NCBI GenBank assembly: GCA_001771135.1
Contig: MESW01000008.1
Location: 87,630 to 151,629 of the forward strand
Reading direction: 5' to 3'
Length of the DNA: 64,000 nucleotides
Source: a candidate division CPR3 bacterium GWF2_35_18
GTDB lineage: Bacteria; Patescibacteriota; CPR3; GWF2-35-18
The position numbers and the translations under genes were made by a program. The notes below the pieces were generated by a model. It had not been told where the DNA came from, made no database searches, and was given only the letters and a program-made list of their open reading frames with translations. Shown in pieces: positions 19,808 through 46,251 of the stretch; position 1 is the stretch's first letter; every line of letters starts with the position of its first letter.

Positions 19808-20998
19808 TTACTTTAATTTTAGCTTTGCATAATTACGTTTTCCAGCTCTGATAATGGTTCCGTCTGAAATATTAATTTCTTGATGCCAATCGGAAATTAC
19901 TTTATCTTCTACCGTAACAGCAGATTGTTCTATTAATCTTTTAGCTTCCGATTTACTACTTACTAATTTACAATTCAGAATAAGATCCGTAATATTAGTT
20001 TTTTTGGTAGAAATTAAGCATTCCTTAATTTTATTCGGAATGCCTTTTTCTTGAACTACTCTTTCAAAAGTATTTTCCGCCTGTTGAGCTTCTTTCTTCG
20101 AATGATAAAATTCGGTAATTGTAAAAGCTAGTTTTTTCTTCAGATCCATCGGATTTTCTTCTCCACTCTGGAGTTTCTTTCTCATAACCTCAATTTTTTG
20201 AAGCTCTACATCTGTTAATAAAATAAAATAGTCGATGATCATCTCATCACTAATACGCATTAGTTTTCCGTACATATCCTTGGGATTTTCTGTTAAAGCA
20301 ACATAATTACTGTAAGACTTACTCATTTTGCGACCATCGAGTCCATTAATAATCGGTGTTGTGAGAACCCATTTTTTTTTGTTATGATAAAGTTGTTGTA
20401 GATTTCGTCCCATCATCATATTAAAAGTTTGATCTGTTCCTCCAAGTTCCAAGTCAACGTTCATAGCTACAGAATCATATCCTTGCAGAAGTGGATACAA
20501 AATTTCGTGAGTGAAAATAGGGAGATTTTTTTTAATCCTTTCCTGAAACATATCTCGCTCAATAAGTTGCTGGAGTGTAGTTTTGGCTGCAAGCTGAATG
20601 ATTTCAGGCATTGCTAGTTTATCAAGCCAGTCACCGTTTCGTTTAATCGTTATCTTTTTAAAATCGAGGATTTTACTAGCCTGAGACTTCCAGGTTTTAA
20701 AATTTTCTTCAATTTGAGCATCGGTGAGCATCGGTCTTGTAGAATCTCGGCCTGTCGGATCTCCGATTTTGACCGTTCCGTTTCCAATCAAAAGGATCAC
20801 TTCATGTCCAAGGTCTGCAAACTGTTTTAGTTTTCGTAAGACAACACTATGCCCTAGAGTCAAAAGTGAGCCAGTTGGATCTATTCCTAAATATAACTTG
20901 ATTTTTCTTTTTGCCATTAACTTTTTGAGAGTTTCTTTGTCGGGAAGAATCTGAGCTACTCCTCGAGTGAGGACTTCATCAATATTTATATTTTTCAT
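19808..20998 (-). CDS. tyrS: Tyrosyl-tRNA synthetase
   Basis: [13 protein letters not shown] (HIGH-type), KMSKS, C-terminal S4 domain. 396 aa. Confidence 0.9.
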
Positions 20999-21184: not shown

Positions 21185-22375
21185 TTACATTCGTGAGAAT
21201 CTCGCGTGAGCTTCTTTAGCAAATTGACTCATGATTTTATAGTTTGCGTTATCATGAATTGAGGAGAGACCAAATGGAATTAAGGTTCTTCCTGTTCCTG
21301 GTTTGAGTAGACCAAACCAGATTTCGGGTGGAGAAATTATTTCCATTAATTTCCCTTGTTGTAATATTGTAGCGCATATCTGAGGTTTGATCACTGTAGG
21401 AATTGCTCCTACAGTCGATAACATCTTTTGTAAGCGAATGTTTTGAGGTTTATTTTTGAGGATAAACCGGATAAAACGAACGTTTTTGAAAAGGCGTTCA
21501 GAGATTTCCTCCAATGTTTGTAGATTAAGATTTTCTTGTGGGAAAACCTCAGCAAACTGGTTTCCATAGGTTTTGATTACGGTTTCATTTTGATTATGAC
21601 CGTTATTAATTGTTCTTGAGCTTATTTCTGGATAACTTTGGGTATTACTTAACCAGATGCCAGAAGCTAGAGTGGCGAGAAGATCGTTTTCGGAATCAAG
21701 ATAAAGAGGTTCAGAATACCACTTTAGAGCTTCAGAATTCCAGAAACGATATGAGATTTGAAAGAATTCTGTGAGAGGAACTCTTTTTGATACTTGCCAC
21801 GCAGTAGCGATGAGGGGTTCAAAACCAAAAGCTGTCATCATCAGATGGTTCATTGCGATAGACAGCATTTGCGGTCCTCCGGGGATAGTATAGCCATTGT
21901 TTACAACCGTGATTCCTGTACGAACTTCAGCCGAAAGTCCGATCGTGGTTTGCACTAGATTCGGATGTTCAAAGAGCTCCCTTATGCTAATGAGTATGGT
22001 TATAGAACCAGGAAAGTCCATAAATTGAGGATTTTTGGCGCAACGAACAACATCCCAGAATAGCTTATTTCTAGTAAGCTGAAAACTGGAAGTAGCAATT
22101 GGGGTATTGTCTGTTTCATCGTAGGAGATCCAGGTTAAGAGTTTCATTTCTCGCATTTCGGCTGCGATTTCTTCTGGTGTTTGTCCGGCCAGAATACCAT
22201 GTCCGTGATGTCCATAAACAGATTCAACTATTTGTTTATGATGAGAGGCAAAAAGTTTCAACTCCTGATTTTGAGTTAAGAGCTTGAGAGAGGAAACGGT
22301 ATGGAAATGCATTCCAGATGCGTTTGCTCTTTGAGTTAATCTTTCAATTTGAGTGGTTAAGATTCCAGTACCCAT
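21185..22375 (-). CDS. Hypothetical protein (396 aa) under T-box control; visibly higher G+C than its neighbours
   Basis: Uninterrupted ORF. AAGGAG RBS 8 nt upstream of the ATG. No family recognised by eye. Preceded by a canonical T-box leader. Confidence 0.6.
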   Translation of the reverse strand: MGTGILTTQIERLTQRANASGMHFHTVSSLKLLTQNQELKLFASHHKQIVESVYGHHGHGILAGQTPEEIAAEMREMKLLTWISYDETDNTPIATSSFQLTRNKLFWDVVRCAKNPQFMDFPGSITILISIRELFEHPNLVQTTIGLSAEVRTGITVVNNGYTIPGGPQMLSIAMNHLMMTAFGFEPLIATAWQVSKRVPLTEFFQISYRFWNSEALKWYSEPLYLDSENDLLATLASGIWLSNTQSYPEISSRTINNGHNQNETVIKTYGNQFAEVFPQENLNLQTLEEISERLFKNVRFIRFILKNKPQNIRLQKMLSTVGAIPTVIKPQICATILQQGKLMEIISPPEIWFGLLKPGTGRTLIPFGLSSIHDNANYKIMSQFAKEAHARFSRM

Positions 22376-22454: not shown

Positions 22455-22870
22455 AAAAAGCTCGTCCTTAAATAGAAAATTTTCTATTTAAGGACGAGCT
22501 TTTAATGAACTCGTGGTACCACCTTTAATTTCAGGTACAAAAAACACTCCAATTATGGAGTGTCCTGCATTTAATCATTTTATACCTGCTTGTTGATTCA
22601 AGTGCTTGACTTTGCAGTGACACTTTAGCCTTTGATAACGGAGGCATTCCGTCCCGCATTTAGTGCGAGAAGCTCCAGAGGGTATTTCGATTTTTTTACG
22701 TTCTGCAGGTTTTCAGGATTCCCTTGCTTTCTAAAAGTTACCGTAAAATTCTACTATTTCTCTTTCATCGCTTTTATACCGAATTGACTTAAATTGAACA
22801 TCAAAATAACGTTAATTCGGAGATATCCAACTACAATCTTATTATTTAATGAAGTTGAATATATAAAATT
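22455..22870 (-). promoter_or_regulatory. T-box riboswitch leader (tRNA-sensing antiterminator) upstream of the 396-aa unknown protein and tyrS
   Basis: Minus strand AAAUUAAAGGUGGUACCACGAG (complement of 22510-22531) against T-box consensus AAUUAGGGUGGNACCGCG. The antiterminator is AAGG[UGGUACC]ACGAG paired with CUCGU-CCUU, a 7-nt bulge. The terminator GCUCGUCCUUAAAUAG/CUAUUUAAGGACGAGC (22460-22499) is followed by U6. The Stem I start GCGAUGAAAGAGAAAUAGUAG carries a K-turn-like GA motif and an AGUA S-turn. Confidence 0.8.
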
Positions 22871-36868: not shown

Positions 36869-37948
36869 TCAGCTTACTTCTGGGATAAACTGTTCCAGAA
36901 TCTGAGCCATTTTTTCTAGAGAAGAGATAGTTACATATTCATTAGTTGCATGAGCGTTTGCAGTATTTGGTTCCGTCAGAATTACTGGAATTTTTTTGGA
37001 AGTAAAGAATCTGGCATCAGATGCTGCTGGATCACGAGTGATTGAAACTTTTCTTTTCAAAACTTTCTCAGCAATTTCATGATAAATTTTGAGATATTGA
37101 TTATTTTTATCGGTAAAAAATGGATTACCATCTACAGTTTCCTTAGGTTTTATTCCAGTTAAATTTGTAATTTTATTAAAAATTTCTTTTTTTGTGTATT
37201 TGGCTGGATAACGGATATCACATTCAGCTGATGCGTAATCAGCGATTTTGTTACTAGCCTCTCCTCCATAGATTTTTCCGATATTAAAAGAGATGCACCA
37301 ATCTTCTAAGCTTTGTGGGTTTTTAAAAGTTTTACGTAGTTTTATACAGGCTAACATTAATTTATCAATAGCGCTTTCTCCGAGGTATGGTCTAGAAGCA
37401 TGACAAGCGACTCCTTTGGTTTCAAGTGTAAAACTCAAAACTCCTTTTTCTTCAACGATAATATCGAAGTTATGTCCTCCGTCTGGAATAAAGGTAATAT
37501 CGGTTTTGTATTTTTCTTTCTCAAGGAGATATTTGACGCCGTCAAATCCGCCTATTTCTTCATCAGTTGTGAGCATTAGGGCAAAAGAAAGTTTGGGATT
37601 TTGTTGATAAAGTTTTTTCATGATGACCATCATGGTAGCGCAAGCCCCTTTCATATCACCAGCGCCTCGAGCGATCAGCTTATCCCCTTCAATTTTTGGT
37701 TTAAATTGATCCTTCTCTGCTTCGATGACATCAAGATGTCCGTTTAGAATTAGTTTTGGATGTTTTGTTTCTTTAGTTAAGATCATTACGGAGGGTTTAT
37801 CGTTGGAAACGTATTTTTTGATGATCATTTTGGTGTCTTTGAAGTAATCGGCAGCAACATCAACAACTTCTTTGAGTCTTTCAGGTTTACTTCTAATTGA
37901 TTCAATCTGAATAAGTTTTTTAGTTAATTCTAAAATTTCTTTTTTCAT
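36869..37948 (-). CDS. M20-family metallopeptidase (DapE/ArgE-like deacylase)
   Basis: LNGHLDVIEAE and ARGAGDMKGA metal-binding motifs of the M20 family. Confidence 0.75.
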   Translation of the reverse strand: MKKEILELTKKLIQIESIRSKPERLKEVVDVAADYFKDTKMIIKKYVSNDKPSVMILTKETKHPKLILNGHLDVIEAEKDQFKPKIEGDKLIARGAGDMKGACATMMVIMKKLYQQNPKLSFALMLTTDEEIGGFDGVKYLLEKEKYKTDITFIPDGGHNFDIIVEEKGVLSFTLETKGVACHASRPYLGESAIDKLMLACIKLRKTFKNPQSLEDWCISFNIGKIYGGEASNKIADYASAECDIRYPAKYTKKEIFNKITNLTGIKPKETVDGNPFFTDKNNQYLKIYHEIAEKVLKRKVSITRDPAASDARFFTSKKIPVILTEPNTANAHATNEYVTISSLEKMAQILEQFIPEVS

Positions 37949-38837
37949 AATTTTCTCCTTTAATTATTAGACATGCTCCAAGGCATGCTCCATGATCTAT
38001 GTTGGAAATTACGATATCTTTAAAATGGAAAAATTTAAAGGTATTTTTTTTATATTTTTCAATAGCTGGCGTCAGAAATTTTTCAGCTGATTTTTTCAAA
38101 GATCCATTAATAATAATTCTTTCTGGATTATAAAAATATGATACTATTTGAAGAAAATTATATAAATGCTCTGTAAAAATCAAAATCGCCCTTTGTGCAT
38201 CTGGGTCATCATTTTTACTTTTAAAAATTTGTTTGGCATCTTTATTTTGTCTGCTAATTTCTTGGTATATTTTTGCCAAACCTTTTCCAGATAAAAAACT
38301 ATCAATAATTGTTTCTTTGTCATGTAGCTCTGGAACTAAATATTTCATTTGGGATATTTCTCCCAGGTTATTTGAATAACCTCCAATAAGTCGTCCGTGT
38401 GAATAAAAAGATAATCTAATTCCTGTTCCTAAATTTATAAGTACAAAGCTTTCAGTTTTTTTCCCTAGTCCAAAAACTGCTTCTGCTTTTGCCATTGCGT
38501 TTACATCATTTTCTAAGATGATCTTTCTTCTAAATTTCTTTTCCCATTTTTTTACGAGAGGATAATTAACATATCCTCCCAAAAGAGAACTGTAGGTGAT
38601 TTTTCCCTTATTCACTACACAATTGAAACTAATGCCGATAACTTTTACTGAATCTTCAATTCTTTTTTGAATTAATTCTTCTAATATTTCTAAAAATTGT
38701 AGACTATTATGCTTAAATTGATCTGTTGAGATCTTCTCACTATCGATTAGATTATATCTATTATCAAAAGAACAGATCTCGATTTTTGTCCCACCAATGT
38801 CAATTCCAAGAAAATAGGGTTTATTTAATTTTTTCAT
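37920..38837 (-). CDS. ROK/BadF-type sugar kinase-like ATPase
   Basis: YFLGIDIGGTKIEI N-terminal ASKHA motif. Confidence 0.6.
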   Translation of the reverse strand: MKKLNKPYFLGIDIGGTKIEICSFDNRYNLIDSEKISTDQFKHNSLQFLEILEELIQKRIEDSVKVIGISFNCVVNKGKITYSSLLGGYVNYPLVKKWEKKFRRKIILENDVNAMAKAEAVFGLGKKTESFVLINLGTGIRLSFYSHGRLIGGYSNNLGEISQMKYLVPELHDKETIIDSFLSGKGLAKIYQEISRQNKDAKQIFKSKNDDPDAQRAILIFTEHLYNFLQIVSYFYNPERIIINGSLKKSAEKFLTPAIEKYKKNTFKFFHFKDIVISNIDHGACLGACLIIKGENYEKRNFRIN

Positions 38838-39954
38838 AGTAGAAAGGTTTTTTTTCTTTGTCGATATCTAAAAATACTTTTGTGAATTTTCCAAAAGATC
38901 TTTTTAAATCTATTAAATATTTTAAATCGAATGTATTGTTATTACTCAAAACTGGAACACTATGGTACGGTAGTTTATCAATATCTTTACGAATTGGAAT
39001 AATTCCTAGTCTATTGAATTTTGGAGATACAGATAAAGGTAAGCTATGTGGTACTGTTTTTTGAAGATAATCAATATCATCTCTAACCTTCAAATAAGCA
39101 AAATAGCTAAAGATACATTTATGTGTTTTTTCTTTAAGTGAATTTCTTATTTCTGAAGCCTTTGGAGAAATCTCATCGTCAGATAATTTTGTATTATAAA
39201 CATCCATTAATATTTTCTCTTCATTATCAGTAGTAAATACAATTTTATAAATTACCGGAAATACTGAATTGTATTTTTCTAAAAAATCTGTATTTCTATC
39301 TTCATAAAGTTTTTTGTATTCAGAGATTCTTTTATCCATTTTTTCAGAGAAATCAGGAACAGTTTTTTCCATCTCCGATAAATCAATAATATTCACACTT
39401 TTTGATAATTTTAATTGACTGTTTAATTCTTCTAAAAAAACCCTATATGCTATCCAGTTAGCTTTTGGTACTCCAGTAAATGGTCCAAACCCTCCTTCTG
39501 TAAAAAGTGTAATTCTAGCCCCATTCTTGTAAATATTCGTAATAAGTTTGGTGATAACTGAAAGTCTATGTAGAGCAAGGACTTCTCCCATGTCAGGAAA
39601 GATTCTATTGGTTTTCAATGGAACAGGGATTTTAAACGGAAAACCTAAGATTGTAAATTGTATAGGTAGATTTTTACTCGTAAAATATGAAATTCTTTCT
39701 ATCCATTTTTTAATATTAGAATTAATAAATTCCACTGGTCCAAAACGATAGTTTTCATCTTGAAATATTGATAATATCTTTTCTTCAATTGAAGTGCCTG
39801 TAATTTGGGGAATTGGAATTAATATTCTATTTTCTAGAAAATCTGCAATGTCATTGATACTGACTATTTTTTCTTGAATAAAATTGTTCCGTAAATTTTT
39901 ATTTGAAAGCTCTTCAAAGTCAATTGAAGGATAAACATGAGGATTTGATTTCAT
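38821..39954 (-). CDS. Hypothetical protein (377 aa); distant paralog of the 41664-42728 protein
   Basis: Shared core blocks with the other copy: PIQFTILGFPFKIPVPLK / PVPITISFAVGSRMPNLLK and GARITLFTEGGFGPFTGVP / GMQILLFDEATLFAGVIPG. Confidence 0.5.
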   Translation of the reverse strand: MKSNPHVYPSIDFEELSNKNLRNNFIQEKIVSINDIADFLENRILIPIPQITGTSIEEKILSIFQDENYRFGPVEFINSNIKKWIERISYFTSKNLPIQFTILGFPFKIPVPLKTNRIFPDMGEVLALHRLSVITKLITNIYKNGARITLFTEGGFGPFTGVPKANWIAYRVFLEELNSQLKLSKSVNIIDLSEMEKTVPDFSEKMDKRISEYKKLYEDRNTDFLEKYNSVFPVIYKIVFTTDNEEKILMDVYNTKLSDDEISPKASEIRNSLKEKTHKCIFSYFAYLKVRDDIDYLQKTVPHSLPLSVSPKFNRLGIIPIRKDIDKLPYHSVPVLSNNNTFDLKYLIDLKRSFGKFTKVFLDIDKEKKPFYYEKIK

Positions 39955-40733
39955 AAGATTTCCTTAAAAATATTATCTAAATTTTCTAAAACTATATCAG
40001 CTTTTTGTTTTACTTGTGAAGTGGCAGTTCTTAAAGCAACATTAAGTCCAAAATTTTTGTCAAAAATAGGCAGATCATCATCATCATGAGCAAAGACCAT
40101 GATTTCATTTTTTGAAATGTTTAAATGTGTTCCTAAAATAAAAGCCGCTTGTTTTTTAGAAACTCCAGGATTAACAAAATTAATGTTTCCATTGTCATGA
40201 ACAGCGTTTGATTTTATGGGAGGCTTAGGGTTATTAAAAGTTATAATGGCGATTTGAGAAGGATGTTTTCTATAAGCCAACTCAAAAAGATTCTCAATAT
40301 TTCGATAAATTTTAATCTTAATATTTGGAATTGATTCAAGAAATTCGTCTTTTCTATTAGGTTTAATAAATGCATAAAGTTGGGTGTGATTTGGATCCCA
40401 AAAGCCGATAAACTTGATTTCGTTATGATAACGATAAATATAGTTTTCGATTCTTTCAATCTCGATATTTTCTAGAGACGAAAAAAAGAGATTCTTTCTT
40501 TTGCTATCACAAATACAGCTGCCATCAGATATTATTAATGGAGCATTTAATTTTAGGTCATTTAGCTCATGATGAGTTGTTAAGAATCCTCTTCCTGTAG
40601 CTACAGTACAGTAAATTCCTTTATCTTGGATTTTTTTAATAATTTTTTTAGTTTGAATGTCAATTTTTACATGTTTTTGTTTTAAAGTACCATCAATGTC
40701 AAAAACACATAATCTAATATTTTTTTTATTCAT
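39951..40733 (-). CDS. HAD-superfamily hydrolase (Cof-like, subfamily IIB)
   Basis: Motif I LCVFDIDGTL. C-terminal cap and GDDDND-like motif. Confidence 0.75.
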   Translation of the reverse strand: MNKKNIRLCVFDIDGTLKQKHVKIDIQTKKIIKKIQDKGIYCTVATGRGFLTTHHELNDLKLNAPLIISDGSCICDSKRKNLFFSSLENIEIERIENYIYRYHNEIKFIGFWDPNHTQLYAFIKPNRKDEFLESIPNIKIKIYRNIENLFELAYRKHPSQIAIITFNNPKPPIKSNAVHDNGNINFVNPGVSKKQAAFILGTHLNISKNEIMVFAHDDDDLPIFDKNFGLNVALRTATSQVKQKADIVLENLDNIFKEIL

Positions 40734-41517
40734 AATTTATTAATTTTTCAAGAAATAGTGGCAAATCTTTCGGTCCTTCAATCTGTTCTATAGCCTGATT
40801 TTTCAGTTTAGTATTACCTTTTCCAACCAATACGAAATTTTCTGCAAATTCGGCCATGGAAAGATCGTTATCATCATCACCAAAAACCATGATTTCTTTA
40901 GTTTTAATTTTATAATTACTACAAAGTTTCTGAATTCCAGATTTTTTAGAAATATCCTTATTTACAAAGTTTAAAGTATCATCGTTATAAGTAGCGTTAT
41001 ATTGACCATTTAATTCCAACTTCTTTATGGTTTTAATAAATAGCAGAGATGGTTTATCTTTGGGAAGATCTTCAATAAAGCAATTATTATTTGAGTAAAA
41101 TTTATATTTTAAATAAGGATATTCTTTAACAAGATTCTCTTTTCCCTTTTCAGAAATAGCAATATGCAGTGTATGATCTTTAGGGTGCCAATAACCGTTA
41201 AAAATGATTGATTCTCTATATTTTTTAATGAAATCAGCTGCTTGTTCGACTATTTCCTTTTCTAAAGGGGAAATAAAAAGGGTATTTTTGTTATTATCAA
41301 TCATGCAGCTGCCATCCAGAATAACGTATGGAGCGCTATAAGTTATTTTTGATATTGCGTTAATAGTCGTATCATGTCCGCGTCCAGTGGCGACAGTATA
41401 GAAAATATTTTCTTTTTGTAGTTTGTGTATAGTTTCAATTAGCTTTTTTGATATCGGCTTTCCCTTTTCTTTCAAGGTTCCGTCAATATCAAAAACACAA
41501 AGTTTAATTTTATTCAT
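40726..41517 (-). CDS. HAD-superfamily hydrolase (Cof-like), tandem paralog
   Basis: MNKIKLCVFDIDGTLKE. FGDDDNDLSMAE motif. Confidence 0.75.
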   Translation of the reverse strand: MNKIKLCVFDIDGTLKEKGKPISKKLIETIHKLQKENIFYTVATGRGHDTTINAISKITYSAPYVILDGSCMIDNNKNTLFISPLEKEIVEQAADFIKKYRESIIFNGYWHPKDHTLHIAISEKGKENLVKEYPYLKYKFYSNNNCFIEDLPKDKPSLLFIKTIKKLELNGQYNATYNDDTLNFVNKDISKKSGIQKLCSNYKIKTKEIMVFGDDDNDLSMAEFAENFVLVGKGNTKLKNQAIEQIEGPKDLPLFLEKLINYE

Positions 41518-41565
41518 AATTACTTCTTTAACTAAAATATTAACATATTTAATTTTTTAGAGAAG

Positions 41566-41611
41566 AAGGGGATGAAGCTGCAATGTAAATACATTGAAGA
41601 TTCATCCCTTT
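41566..41611 (-). terminator. Hairpin downstream of the GC-rich 354-aa gene (putative terminator)
   Basis: AAGGGGATGAA/TTCATCCCCTT 11-bp stem enclosing a CAATGTA/TACATTG sub-palindrome. Confidence 0.45.
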
Positions 41612-41663
41612 ATGGGGGTTAGTCTCTCATCTCCTTCTTCTTGTTGAATCTCAGCAAAAAAAC

Positions 41664-42728
41664 TTACTTGCCGAGGTAATAAAATACGAACGGTACACCT
41701 TGTGTACCAAATTCGTTGGGAGAAATTCGAACCGGGATAGCGCCAGGGTGTTCACGTTGGAGCCGATATTCCGGAACAATATGGACGACGAGTCGTCCAT
41801 TCGCATCTCGATAAACCACTGGCATCCCATGATTAGTTAAAACCTTGGTGACATCAATGACCACTCTCTCACTTTTGTCGGTGATGCATGCGTTGATGTG
41901 GTTTTGGAAGCCGAGATCATTTAAGAGTCGTTCAAAGAGCCGGTTCTGTTTGCGGAGTGCCAGAGTGCGTAATACCCGTTCAGACAGAGTGATTGCCGTT
42001 TGCCATGTTTCTTCACCGATGAGCATTCGTAGTACAAGATAGTCTTTGGCTCGATTGGTATAGAGAGGATCCATGGCATCGGGATTGGTCATCCCTGGAT
42101 AACAGCAGGCCATGGCGTAGGTAATGGCATCATGACTAGACATGGGGATATGTTGAGCCTGTTCCCAGGGAAGCATTTCTGGAGTCATGGGGATAATGGT
42201 GATAGGCGCTCCGATTGCAGTTATGATTTGATTGAAATACTGAAGTTGTCTTTCAACATCTTCAGCTACAATTCCAGGAATCACTCCTGCAAATAGGGTT
42301 GCTTCGTCAAAGAGTAAGATTTGCATTCCAGGTTTATAGATTCTTTGGATCTTTTCGTTGATGAAGCGGAATACCCAAGCCATGTGGAGCCAACCTAAAG
42401 TTGGATAAGCAATCAGTTCTTTAAACTTGAGAAGATTCGGCATCCGTGATCCGACCGCAAAGGAAATTGTAATGGGTACCGGTTGCTGTAGATTAATTGC
42501 CTGTTGAATAACATCCCAAAGACGGATTTTTTCATCGTCGGAGAGTTTAATGCAATTTTCAGTGTGTCCGAGGATGATTTTTAGGACAGCCATAGCAGTG
42601 TCCGTTTCCTTGGGTAAATGGTATTGATCCATCCGCCAGCCAAGGAGACTTTCCAAAAAGGCAACTTCGGTTGCCAATGTGGTCATTCCATTGGTGTGCG
42701 GCAGTATGATGGATGGTCGAGCGTTCAC
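41664..42728 (-). CDS. Hypothetical protein (354 aa), GC-richer; paralog of 38821-39954
   Basis: GTG start with AGGAGGTG SD 5 nt upstream. Composition clearly differs from the flanking AT-rich genes. Confidence 0.55.
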   Translation of the reverse strand: MNARPSIILPHTNGMTTLATEVAFLESLLGWRMDQYHLPKETDTAMAVLKIILGHTENCIKLSDDEKIRLWDVIQQAINLQQPVPITISFAVGSRMPNLLKFKELIAYPTLGWLHMAWVFRFINEKIQRIYKPGMQILLFDEATLFAGVIPGIVAEDVERQLQYFNQIITAIGAPITIIPMTPEMLPWEQAQHIPMSSHDAITYAMACCYPGMTNPDAMDPLYTNRAKDYLVLRMLIGEETWQTAITLSERVLRTLALRKQNRLFERLLNDLGFQNHINACITDKSERVVIDVTKVLTNHGMPVVYRDANGRLVVHIVPEYRLQREHPGAIPVRISPNEFGTQGVPFVFYYLGK

Positions 42729-43733
42729 AAAACACCTCCTAAGGAATTAATGGTGAGCTAACTTGCCGCCCACCTGATCCGCAGGGGGCGGATTAGTGAA
42801 TTCCGTTATTAGCGGGATTTTCGAGGATATTTATTGCTATAGTACCTTCGTTGATTTTTACGCCCTCCTTCTTTGGGTCGTTTTGAATATCTTCCAATAC
42901 CTCTCGGGGCAATTTTTTTACACATTACATTCTCTCCAAATGGGGTTTTACTCTTCCAGATAGAGTATATAAAAGGCTTAAGGTTAGACTTTGCCATCAA
43001 GCATGTATTTTCGAGTATCTCTGGTAATACTCTAGTTATCTTTTTTAGGTCATAGCTGACTAGGCTGTATCAAAAGATAACGATTTTAATGTAAGTCGAT
43101 TCTCCTTTGGTCTATTGACCAGAATTTCCCTTACGGGTTCATAAAACAGGCCTCCATTTTTGGTGGGGGAAAAGATTTGGTAGCTAGAAATAGGTTTATT
43201 ATCTACCCTATCTTTTTCCCCACCAAGATAATTGCTTGATGGATTTTAAAATTTATTTTTTAGGTGCAAAAATTTTATCTTTCGAATAAAATGAGGAATT
43301 TATAATTATTTTTACTTCTCATTTTGTCTAAAGGATAAAATCCTTTATATTTATTTAGATCTAACTAAAAAAACCTCCATTTTTAGGGAGGTTTTAATTG
43401 CTTTTTTATTTAGTTTGTTTTAGTTCCTACATACCTCCCCAAAGATTAATGCCTACAAAAAGGACCATAATAAGGCAAATGATGACAAAAAGATAAGTCA
43501 TCCAATCAATGGATCGGACCTGGGTGGTAGCATTTATATGAGATGGATTTGATTTCGTGTTAGATGTCATTTTTACAAATAATAATAAAACCTGATGGGA
43601 CAAGCTTCTACATATTTTGCCAAAAGGTCTTTGATTTGTCAAGCAGAAATACTGTGAGTACTTTTTTATAAATATTAAATGAGGAGAGGCATTTTTAAAT
43701 TATATTTAAAAATGCCTCTTATAAAAGGCGGTG

Positions 43734-44171
43734 TTAATCTTGTTTATGTTGCAAGCGATAGCTGCGATGTTCGAAGGCTTTTTTTACTTCTAGAAGTAAC
43801 GATCGTTGATTGTAATATTGTCCCATAAACCAATGTATGCCCATTCCCATGGCTTCTCGGCCAATAGTCCAGTCTGTCCCGAATTCTGGATCAGTTGGTA
43901 CAACCGCTACTGTGAATCGATGTAAACCTTTTAGATCTGCCTTGATCTTTTGGAGCAGGGCGATTGTTTTTGGATGATTCATTTTTTCCACAATGATAAA
44001 GATAACGTCAGCTTTGCAGATGTCATCGTCCGTCATAGTTTCATAATGAACCATTTTTACGGTATGCTGGAATTCTTTCACAATGAGTGTTTCTAAGTCA
44101 TGTGCCAGCACACTTCGGTGACCGTGAAGTATCGTTATGTTGAGATGAGAGGAATTAACATTATCGTTCAT
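43734..44171 (-). CDS. Hypothetical small protein, receiver (CheY)-like topology
   Basis: 145 aa with an alternating hydrophobic-strand and helix pattern. Paralogous to the next ORF. Confidence 0.4.
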   Translation of the reverse strand: MNDNVNSSHLNITILHGHRSVLAHDLETLIVKEFQHTVKMVHYETMTDDDICKADVIFIIVEKMNHPKTIALLQKIKADLKGLHRFTVAVVPTDPEFGTDWTIGREAMGMGIHWFMGQYYNQRSLLLEVKKAFEHRSYRLQHKQD

Positions 44172-44202: not shown

Positions 44203-44637
44203 TTAATCAAGGCGATTTCTTGTAGGTCTTGTTATTGCAATAAGGCGATCCATGGTTTCAAATGCTTCTTGAAGTTCTTGTTCTAATTCCTTTCCGGAAT
44301 AGGTCCCGATGAAATAATGTGCTCCGAAAGCAATAGCCTTTCGGCCTAAATTATAATCAATCACTTGTAGATCGTTAACATCAACGACGGCAATGATATA
44401 TCTGATCATGCCACGAACGATGGTTCTAATTGTAGTCAGTAATGTTAAAATTCGTTGGTTGTTGTTTTGAGGGGTGACGACCATAAAGACGTCATAGGCG
44501 ACTAATAGTGATGCAGCGATATTGTCAAACTGCATGATTGTAACGTGAAATCCAAAGGATTTTAATAAGGAGGAAAGTTCTTCACAAAAATCACAATGAT
44601 CTTCATGAATGAGAATTAGGTCTAGATCATAGTTCAT
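44203..44637 (-). CDS. Hypothetical small protein, receiver-like (tandem paralog)
   Basis: 144 aa. LDLILIHED...DVFMVV...IIAVVD pattern. Confidence 0.4.
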   Translation of the reverse strand: MNYDLDLILIHEDHCDFCEELSSLLKSFGFHVTIMQFDNIAASLLVAYDVFMVVTPQNNNQRILTLLTTIRTIVRGMIRYIIAVVDVNDLQVIDYNLGRKAIAFGAHYFIGTYSGKELEQELQEAFETMDRLIAITRPTRNRLD

Positions 44638-44985: not shown

Positions 44986-46251
44986 ATGAGTGGAAATTCT
45001 GATAAAATGATATTTCCCATCAGAGAGTTAAAATCCCCATTTTATTCAAAGACAGAAAGGAGAAGATCCAGAGACAAAGTAAACTTTGCTAGTTTTCAAA
45101 TATCAACCCTCAAAAATTTCGTTCATTCAGTTAGAAAGGAGACTACTGTGGCTGGAAAATTGCCTGATCAATCTTTGTATGGGTTCCTACCAGAAAGTGG
45201 ACAGTTATCACTTGGTCCTTTGTCTGTGATCCAAGGCATTCACTATTCACGATGTGTCTGGGGAGGGTTGACACTCGTTCCGCTAGATTCAACATGGACG
45301 AGATTTAATATTTTAGACGTCGTTGCTCCGGATGATCACCTCATGCGGCCGTTTTGGCACCCAATAATTCAGGATCTGGGAGTTTCAGGACATCTTCTGC
45401 GGTTCTGTGATTCCATGCTCAAGATGGGAATGGTAATAGATCCTCGATACACAGGGATTGATATTGATTACCATAATCCAGAATATTGGCTCCAAATGAT
45501 CTATTTTATAAAAGACCTTATTGAGAAGATGATCAAAGCAAACAAAGAAAACCTTCTCAACCTCAAAAATACATCATGGGATCGTGTTTATATTCGGCCC
45601 ATGGCCTTATGCCAAGCACAAGGAATTGGTCCAGTTCAACCAGACATCGCACATCCCACTATGGCTGATTTGTATCTCATAGCCCAAGCTTTCGCTGATT
45701 ATGGCAAAAGGGATGCGGTTTTGGTCCGTGCTCCAAGAGCTCTGGCCACGATTACCGGTACCATCAAGATGTCCGGTAACTACGGGTCATATCTGACGTT
45801 GAAGAAGATAGCTCTCGATGCTGCTAAATTAGTTGGCATTGAGGCCGATGACTGTTACCAGGTCAAGTACGACATTAATGGTAGATTAGTCCTCGGAGAA
45901 GCTAGTACCTGTGCCCTGGGTACAGTTTTTCAAAGAAAGTCGGGACCCAAGTTAATCGTTCCAGATCCACTATCCACGGATACCTTACCTAGCTTTACGG
46001 CACGATGGGTCATCAGACTAGCTCAAGAGCAACTCGGGATTAATGCTGGCTATGGAGCCATTCCAATTCGTCAATTTGAGGAAGAAGTTCTTGAACTTAT
46101 GCGATGCGGAAACGCTACACGCGTTAAACCTGTTAGTGCTATTGGCCGTCGTCCGTTAGTCACGGAAATCGGTAACCAAATCTCCGTATTATACGAAAAA
46201 GTTGTTCGCGGAGAACTTTATCCCGAACACTCAACTGTAATTCAAATTTAA
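44986..46251 (+). CDS. Fold-type IV PLP-dependent aminotransferase-like protein (BCAT/D-aaT/ADC-lyase family) with about 170-aa N-terminal extension
   Basis: C-terminal 250 aa collinear with E. coli IlvE: YIRP..., TIKMSGNYGSYL (against AAKAGGNYLSSL, with the Lys), DINGRLVLGEAST...IVPDP (against DVNGYISEGAGENLF...FTPP), LPSFTARWVIRLAQE. Confidence 0.6.
   Translation: MSGNSDKMIFPIRELKSPFYSKTERRRSRDKVNFASFQISTLKNFVHSVRKETTVAGKLPDQSLYGFLPESGQLSLGPLSVIQGIHYSRCVWGGLTLVPLDSTWTRFNILDVVAPDDHLMRPFWHPIIQDLGVSGHLLRFCDSMLKMGMVIDPRYTGIDIDYHNPEYWLQMIYFIKDLIEKMIKANKENLLNLKNTSWDRVYIRPMALCQAQGIGPVQPDIAHPTMADLYLIAQAFADYGKRDAVLVRAPRALATITGTIKMSGNYGSYLTLKKIALDAAKLVGIEADDCYQVKYDINGRLVLGEASTCALGTVFQRKSGPKLIVPDPLSTDTLPSFTARWVIRLAQEQLGINAGYGAIPIRQFEEEVLELMRCGNATRVKPVSAIGRRPLVTEIGNQISVLYEKVVRGELYPEHSTVIQI

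Follow-up and report, generated by a model that had tools for sequence, protein, structure and literature searches.

To our knowledge, the PvcA/IsnA/Dit1 fold is known for one kind of chemistry, found in specialised metabolites (isonitriles and N-formyl-tyrosine); all that we know the family to do is to condense an amino acid with ribulose 5-phosphate and, in the case of Dit1, to carry out N-formyl chemistry. In isonitrile formation, the alpha-amino group of tyrosine or tryptophan reacts with C2 of ribulose 5-phosphate (PMC12946266, PMC7949033), and Dit1 acts in forming N-formyl-tyrosine, its product being taken to be an N-formyl amino acid (PMC13005658). Here we describe six genes of the candidate division CPR3 bacterium GWF2_35_18 that include two copies of this fold. 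They lie in a stretch of 64,000 nucleotides of contig MESW01000008.1 (positions 87,630 to 151,629 of the forward strand; assembly GCA_001771135.1), referred to below as the window, and all positions given for this genome are those of the window. The six genes are a conserved metabolic module around a non-canonical branch of the PvcA/IsnA family (PF05141), and this module recurs across phyla. We use A-type for the family of its 377-aa member and B-type for the family of its 354-aa member; the A-type gene nearly always stands beside a second copy of the fold (a B-type gene, a gene of the C-type described below, or a second A-type gene) and a dedicated kinase of the ROK family.

The genes are co-directional on the minus strand, in the order B-type paralog, HAD phosphatase, HAD phosphatase, A-type paralog, ROK kinase and M20 deacylase. 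The B-type gene (41664-42728; 354 aa, GTG start) encodes a divergent PvcA/IsnA-fold protein of the short form and is set apart from the other five by an intergenic spacer of 146 nt (41518-41663, by the coordinates of the open reading frames, ORFs), near which terminator-like hairpins are weak only. It is followed by two phosphatases of the HAD-IIB (Cof) type, b (40726-41517; 263 aa; PF08282, E 6e-36) and a (39951-40733; 260 aa; PF08282, E 1e-31), then by the A-type gene (38821-39954; 377 aa; PF05141, DIT1/PvcA), an atypical ROK-family kinase (37920-38837; 305 aa; PF00480) and an M20 metallo-deacylase of the ArgE/DapE type (36869-37948; 359 aa; PF01546 and PF07687). By their ORF coordinates, the last five genes overlap successively by 8, 4, 17 and 29 nt, and are therefore translationally coupled. 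All six ORFs listed in the initial annotation of this DNA are present on the minus strand; its description of the paralogs as bracketing kinase and phosphatase genes holds for the two HAD genes but not for the ROK gene, which sits downstream of the A-type gene. A search of NCBIfam with all six proteins assigned no equivalog.

Two copies of the PvcA fold

The A-type protein scores above the PF05141 gathering threshold (75.9 bits against a cutoff of 26.4; E 4.8e-21) and covers profile positions 1-257 of 273. Its AlphaFold2 model has a predicted local distance difference test score (pLDDT) of 92.9, and the best Foldseek match is PvcA (3E59_B; E 1.8e-14, template modelling score (TM) 0.76), with the same PvcA and PIsnA structures as for the B-type model matched at about 2e-14. 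Orthologs fall into more than 120 clusters, nearly all from the candidate phyla radiation (CPR), and carry the NCBI name "L-tyrosine/L-tryptophan isonitrile synthase family protein"—through these labels, the PF05141 membership of the 377-aa protein is already known.

Across diverse PF05141 proteins, eight positions are essentially universal (K108, K114, D121, E124, Y142, E/D153, Y170 and H331 in A-type numbering), and the A-type protein carries all eight. It also has the motifs FP.K.P..K, PD..E, PGA.I and HG in common with IsnA/PvcA, and, like them, it probably takes a ketose phosphate and an amino acid as ligands. It differs from them in being only ~19-20% identical in sequence, with an N-terminal extension of ~85 aa, and in being part of a large branch, so far uncharacterised, whose marks are E153, S/T310, K/R312 and R315; where the alignment places D153 and H-P-Q in PvcA, PIsnA and the PvcA-like protein P0233, the A-type protein has E153 and S310-P-K312.

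The score, the fold, the eight residues and the NCBI name are all consistent with canonical chemistry, in which the A-type protein, with or without the B-type protein, would make an alpha-isocyano acid from an amino acid and ribulose 5-phosphate, or an N-formyl amino acid in the manner of Dit1. The translationally coupled ArgE/DapE-type protein would then be a deformylase or deacylase, and the ROK and HAD proteins would do no more than manage the sugar-phosphate pool. However, the A-type protein reaches only 35.9 bits on the NCBIfam equivalog for PvcA (NF045653), for which the cutoff is 600 bits and to which the B-type protein has no match, and it has the E153/S310-P-K312 substitutions. Together with the gene context discussed below, this makes the canonical explanation unlikely.

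The B-type protein gave no Pfam or NCBIfam match, and none to PF05141 at E<=0.1; its sequence is 100% identical to a "hypothetical protein" record of candidate division CPR3 bacterium GWF2_35_18, and two other members of its family score 25.0 and 21.5 bits on PF05141, just below the cutoff of 26.4. Because BLASTP between the two paralogs gave no signal (E 0.11) and a PDB sequence search with the 354-aa protein found no match, their relationship is visible by profiles or structure only. An hhalign comparison of the 354-aa family (A1, 7 sequences) with the 377-aa family (A2, 30 sequences) returned a probability of 96.4% (E 1e-9) over 285 columns, pairing residues 38-353 with 50-375; its score of 78.5 compares with 17.0±3.4 (maximum 27.7; z≈18) for 60 column-shuffled controls. 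An exhaustive hidden Markov model (HMM) search with A1 recovered 75 representatives at E<=1e-10 (50% clustering) with a tail of canonical PF05141 proteins, and a 72-sequence B-type HMM matched diverse PF05141 proteins at 1e-15 to 1e-28. In its AlphaFold2 model (pLDDT 82, predicted template modelling score 0.83) the B-type protein most resembles, among PDB structures, PIsnA (9DHM_B, E 3.1e-11; also 9DH4) and PvcA (3E59, E 1.2e-10) at TM 0.60-0.65, whereas the next-best matches—tyrosyl-tRNA synthetase (TyrRS) and cyclodipeptide synthase (CDPS)—are at least 1e6-fold weaker. For both paralogs, then, Foldseek finds the IsnA/PvcA fold (3E59 for PvcA, 9DH4/9DHM for PIsnA) at E 1e-10 to 1e-14 and probability 1.0.

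The B-type protein is a true but very divergent paralog of the A-type protein, and only structure and profile-profile comparison place it in the superfamily. The initial annotation had noticed sequence blocks shared by the two proteins, proposed an ancient duplication, and named DIT1/PvcA (PF05141) as a hypothesis. The pair is real by hhalign, HMM and AlphaFold2/Foldseek, even though BLASTP is blind to it; the blocks turn out to be the superfamily's own conserved motifs, and the family guess was correct for the 377-aa protein by Pfam and for the 354-aa protein by profile-profile comparison and structure. The size of the B-type family (~75 representatives at 50% clustering) and its position next to the A-type gene in many CPR lineages bear out an ancient duplication.

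The B-type protein keeps five of the eight universal residues, namely K101, Y131, E142, H300 and, as a conservative K→R change, R95. In place of the universal D, E and Y it has T110, W113 and Q161. The residues that mark the A-type branch (E142, T283, K285 and R288) are kept as well, with T283-D-K285 at the H-P-Q site. Seven B-type sequences of 40-46% identity share 63 invariant columns, and the family is under strong purifying selection. From these residues we infer that the A-type protein is the probable catalytic subunit and that the B-type protein is a diverged partner or carries out a modified step. About one third of the B-type family has an N-terminal extension of about 165-264 aa that is absent from the 354-aa protein. 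The idea that this extension is encoded separately here, by two small ORFs of 144 and 145 aa upstream of the B-type gene, was ruled out (hhalign probability 0.4%), and an HMM of the N-terminal domain matches no ORF of the window.

A third family, the C-type, comprises proteins of 400-440 aa in 23 clusters, has no Pfam match, and shares contigs with the A-type. A single C-type sequence gave no signal against the A and B profiles; an 18-sequence alignment is collinear with the A-type over ~240 columns with all motifs in register. The hhalign result is weak (probability 12.7%, E 0.0023), and its score of 32.8 lies above all 60 shuffles (17.2±2.8, maximum 26.1). Judged by this sequence comparison, the C-type is probably a third diverged clade of the PvcA fold. 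In C-type loci, a protein of 446 aa that matches ATP-grasp faintly (MptN-like) adjoins the M20 gene (L005:12051-13391, minus strand, and its equivalent in L017); it may be a further accessory gene of this variant of the module.

A different kind of second copy is found in three alphaproteobacteria, where another A-type gene follows the ROK gene. The second paralog of Tropicimonas was considered as a B-type protein and rejected, since it matches the A profile at 5.6e-100 and the B profile at 1e-4; it is A-type, and these second copies are an independent duplication. Elsewhere in the family, distant PF05141 proteins of Fructilactobacillus and Leuconostoc (L031-L033) are of the D/H-P-K type, match the A profile at E 1e-28 to 1e-32, have no module neighbours, and make up another uncharacterised branch. 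In a Paceibacterota locus with neither a B-type nor a ROK neighbour (L030:6821-7954), a stop codon splits the A-type gene into two ORFs, which suggests a decaying copy.

Gene context in CPR bacteria and alphaproteobacteria

The context of the module was compared across homolog look-ups and, with annotation by local profiles, across 26 loci of species-representative genomes: the genes of the window and of loci L001-L009 were annotated with Pfam, and L010-L035 were scanned with module-specific profiles only. A B-type gene lies directly upstream of the A-type gene in 13 of 17 CPR-type loci, and a C-type gene takes that place in three more. The B-A loci come from Nealsonbacteria, Buchananbacteria, Moranbacteria, Paceibacterota, Daviesbacteria-like genomes and others, and their flanking genes differ. 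Directly downstream of the A-type gene, a ROK gene is found in 10 CPR loci and in all five alphaproteobacterial loci; HAD-IIB genes occur in nine loci and M20 genes in four. The M20 gene is an accessory member of the module, present in or near it in L017, L022 and L023, and a different M20 gene lies near the Tropicimonas operon. The initial annotation proposed a small-molecule pathway, to be checked by co-occurrence with HAD and ROK genes and by synteny in relatives; synteny is conserved among CPR and alphaproteobacterial loci, and the counts above document the co-occurrence.

Some of these records carry unexpected labels. One B-A pair is on a contig binned as a Promethearchaeota archaeon (L029), and five CPR-like contigs are labelled "uncultured Gammaproteobacteria" (L016, L017, L018, L022 and L025). 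These are probably mis-binned or mislabelled metagenome-assembled genome (MAG) records; gene transfer is possible. Fragments of a second ROK gene lie downstream of the intact one in L012 (9250-9840) and L004.

The kinase itself sets the module apart. The ROK protein of the window matches PF00480 over its full length (4e-35, residues 10-293), and module ROKs keep the ASKHA ATP motif DxGGT (as DIGGT) and the catalytic ENDVN, in common with NagK, NanK, Glk and AlsK. In contrast to those enzymes, the hallmark zinc motif CxCGxxGC is missing from all 14 module ROKs compared (that of the window and 13 orthologs from CPR and alphaproteobacteria). The window ROK and that of the Sinorhizobium module align nearly without gaps (28% identity, E 3e-45), while scores against named ROK families do not exceed 79 bits, with cutoffs of 250-450. 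By these comparisons the module ROKs are mutual orthologs that form a dedicated, atypical sub-clade.

The phosphatases and the deacylase are less distinctive. HAD a and HAD b are tandem paralogs (37% identity, E 3e-46); both have DIDGT, and GDDDND is visible in HAD b. They score 92 and 122 bits on TIGR00099 (cutoff 137), with weak matches to S6PP and MPGP families, and on their sequences are best taken as family-level members of PF08282. The M20 protein matches PF01546 at 1e-29 along with the M20_dimer domain (PF07687), and scores 205.8 bits on TIGR01910 (cutoff 217.6); its equivalog scores are all far below their cutoffs. An independent link between a phosphatase and PF05141 is offered by P0225, a HAD_2-DIT1_PvcA fusion protein of 659 aa on a planctomycete-like contig (L036:6001-7980), followed by genes for a short-chain dehydrogenase/reductase (SDR) and a Zn-dependent alcohol dehydrogenase; this looks like another uncharacterised PF05141 pathway involving a phosphatase.

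It could be argued that the six genes have no common pathway—that they are chance neighbours, or a gene order conserved in small genomes, with the 354-aa ORF as a decaying relic. The HAD, ROK and M20 families are common and promiscuous; near the module, in the window as in L005, housekeeping genes for threonyl-tRNA synthetase and trigger factor recur too; and the B-type gene lies 146 nt apart with aberrant composition. However, the A-ROK pair is kept from CPR to Alphaproteobacteria at ~30% identity in contexts that are otherwise unrelated, B-A adjacency spans many CPR classes with differing flanks, the B-type family combines its 63 invariant columns with a confident fold, and the gene overlaps indicate translational coupling. 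The synteny data largely refute this explanation, which we regard as very improbable.

The composition of the B-type gene deserves separate comment. Its GC content at third codon positions (GC3) is 0.445, against 0.175 for the A-type gene; the ROK and HAD genes have 0.19-0.23, against ~0.30 in housekeeping neighbours. The contrast between the paralogs, which the initial annotation took as the mark of an acquired xenolog, is therefore real, but the xenolog claim fails. In 12 of 12 other genomes the total GC of the B-type gene exceeds that of the A-type gene next to it (11 of 12 by GC3), and relative to surrounding DNA the B-type gene is GC-richer, and the A-type gene AT-richer, in nearly every genome examined (window, L002 and L010-L029). 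In addition, the two genes have their closest relatives together on shared foreign contigs (P0009/P0002, P0010/P0003 and P0016/P0004), which points to co-inheritance of the pair. Given this recurrence across genomes and the shared contigs, the skew is a systematic property of the A/B pair and not evidence of recent foreign acquisition here.

The five alphaproteobacterial loci (Sinorhizobium medicae, a relative, Tropicimonas, Consotaella salsifontis and a Devosiaceae MAG) put the module in another setting. The A-type gene (30% identity) and the module ROK gene stand directly behind dctPQM, which encodes a tripartite ATP-independent periplasmic (TRAP) transporter, and are adjoined by a divergent AraC regulator and a GlmS-isomerase/NagB-II-like SIS protein, whose matches are all far below their family cutoffs. 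In the CPR loci examined, no transporter was found.

This setting is the basis for an explanation in terms of salvage or catabolism. An amino-acid-sugar conjugate (of Heyns/Amadori type, or a carboxylated amino sugar) would be taken up and phosphorylated by the ROK kinase, and the imine chemistry of the PvcA fold, run in reverse, would split or rearrange it, supplying an auxotrophic CPR cell with amino acid and sugar phosphate. All five alphaproteobacterial loci fit such an inducible uptake and catabolic layout, which is frl/fra-like; M20 hydrolases lie near the Tropicimonas operon and in the four CPR loci, and CPR bacteria in general rely on scavenging. On the other side, the CPR loci lack a transporter, and it would be futile for one catabolic operon to combine a kinase with phosphatases unless their substrates differ. 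A SIS deglycase alone suffices for known fructosamine cleavage, which leaves two PvcA-fold proteins without an obvious role, and the SIS assignment itself is weakened by the low scores. We therefore regard salvage as rather doubtful.

Proposed reactions of the module

The likely function of the module is C–N chemistry between a sugar phosphate supplied by the kinase and an amino acid, with the B-type protein as a diverged partner. In the general mechanism that we favour, with a probability of about 0.5, the ROK kinase acts first, imine formation by the A-type protein follows, and HAD phosphatases complete the sequence, with the B-type partner and the M20 protein in attendance. The ROK kinase would phosphorylate a sugar; the A-type protein, acting as all characterised members of the family do, would then link an amino acid through its alpha-amino group to a ketose phosphate at the carbonyl carbon, giving an imine at C2. 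The B-type protein would probably be a partner subunit or perform a diverged second step, because three of the eight universal residues are lost, yet the family is under strong purifying selection. The HAD phosphatases would remove phosphate from the product or a by-product, and the M20 protein would trim or recycle the amino-acid part.

Several features speak against the canonical explanation. No TauD/2-oxoglutarate (2OG) dioxygenase (PvcB/IsnB) or P450 was seen by Pfam annotation in L001-L009 or among the window genes, L010-L035 not having been scanned for a dioxygenase. Because IsnA removes the phosphate on its own, neither a dedicated phosphatase nor a HAD fusion would be expected if the A-type protein did the same. 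Known isonitrile clusters contain nothing that corresponds to the second paralog and the dedicated ROK kinase. A classical vinyl isonitrile is probably not what the module makes. Because no IsnB, PvcB or P450 is seen in the window or the Pfam-annotated loci, kinase and phosphatases are dedicated, and a HAD_2-PF05141 fusion exists, a phosphorylated sugar-amine intermediate is suggested. The kinase/phosphatase/ligase-type route of the initial annotation is plausible in its logic as a kinase/phosphatase route, and the independent HAD-PF05141 fusion backs that part of it; its ligase-type chemistry and its envelope precursor as product are conjectural.

Several points weigh against the favoured mechanism. 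We know of no A-, B- or C-type protein with a known substrate, product or activity. The usual substrates of ROK kinases are hexoses, whereas IsnA uses a pentulose. Within the flanks examined, the HAD gene is missing from about half of the CPR loci and the ROK gene from about one third. The alphaproteobacterial operons, with their AraC, TRAP and SIS genes, look catabolic rather than biosynthetic.

A further possibility, which we put forward tentatively, is that the A/B (or A/C) pair is a heteromeric PvcA-fold enzyme with a reaction other than isonitrile formation, widely distributed among Patescibacteria, found also in some rhizobia, and serving a core or salvage pathway. The B- and C-type families would then be new families of diverged or pseudo-enzyme partners. 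Such a pair, with the zinc-motif-free ROK kinase, might for example form or cleave an N-(sugar-phosphate)-amino-acid conjugate.

Surroundings, known systems and significance

Several neighbouring features of the window were examined along with the module. Upstream of the B-type gene lies a 1-kb stretch free of ORFs (42729-43733), within which a strong bidirectional terminator-like hairpin (43370-43395; a 9-bp stem followed by a T-run, with no Rfam match) separates the B-type gene from the upstream ORFs. The two small ORFs mentioned earlier (43734-44171 and 44203-44637, minus strand; 145 and 144 aa) are mutual paralogs (26% identity, E 1e-17); neither matches Pfam or NCBIfam, and the GC content of both exceeds that of the genome. 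Beyond them, a 421-aa ORF on the plus strand (44986-46251; 43% GC) reaches, in its C-terminal half, the Pfam threshold for class-IV (branched-chain/D-amino-acid) aminotransferases (28.6 against 28.5 bits); it has no PDB sequence match, and its N-terminal ~170 aa have no assigned family. Neither this ORF nor the two small ones are members of the module, being absent from all 30 other loci. At a greater distance, a T-box leader (22487-22777, minus strand; RF00230, 100 bits) precedes a 396-aa ORF (21185-22375, minus strand) with no Pfam and no PDB sequence match, after which comes a TyrRS gene, also of 396 aa (19808-20998); the T-box-controlled ORF was considered as a relative of the adjacent TyrRS and is not related to it.

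The module shares parts with several described systems. With IsnA/PvcA it has the fold in common, but the A-type gene has no PvcB/IsnB partner in view and stands instead beside a diverged second copy and a zinc-motif-free ROK gene. Yeast Dit1, which makes N-formyl-tyrosine of the spore wall, belongs to the same Pfam family and is likened here by description only; it has a structural or primary role rather than an antibiotic one, and the M20 deacylase could act on an N-formyl product of the Dit1 type. Dit1 works with the P450 Dit2, whereas this locus has no P450. In pathway logic only, the module recalls sucrose-phosphate synthase with its phosphatase (SPP), mannosyl-3-phosphoglycerate synthase with MPGP, and trehalose-6-phosphate synthase with OtsB, in which a synthase acts on a sugar phosphate and a phosphatase follows. 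HAD-IIB phosphatases of the Cof/SPP/MPGP type make such pathways irreversible; the synthase here has the PvcA fold and is not a glycosyltransferase. The frl/fra operons for fructosamines (Amadori compounds) share with the alphaproteobacterial versions a transporter, a sugar kinase, a SIS protein and a local regulator. They differ in that the kinase here is ROK and not PfkB, the transporter is TRAP, and the PvcA-fold proteins have no frl/fra counterpart; the CPR loci lack the SIS gene as well as the transporter.

We found no published description of the 354-aa family, or of the C-type as a probable further case, as diverged PvcA folds, nor of the pairing of an A-type protein with a diverged copy, the dedicated ROK kinase without its zinc motif, or the cross-phylum module. 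Reduced CPR genomes are generally thought to be poor in specialised metabolism; a distinct branch of the PvcA fold is nevertheless broadly conserved in CPR/Patescibacteria despite this reduction. The findings call for caution in annotating A-type genes as "L-tyrosine/L-tryptophan isonitrile synthase". The same core is present in cultivable Sinorhizobium medicae, Consotaella salsifontis and Tropicimonas, which makes its function experimentally tractable. The module suggests an undescribed pathway that joins sugar-phosphate and amino-acid metabolism, and its study could reveal new enzymology of the fold, give the orphan B- and C-type families a structural home, and explain a conserved part of CPR metabolism.

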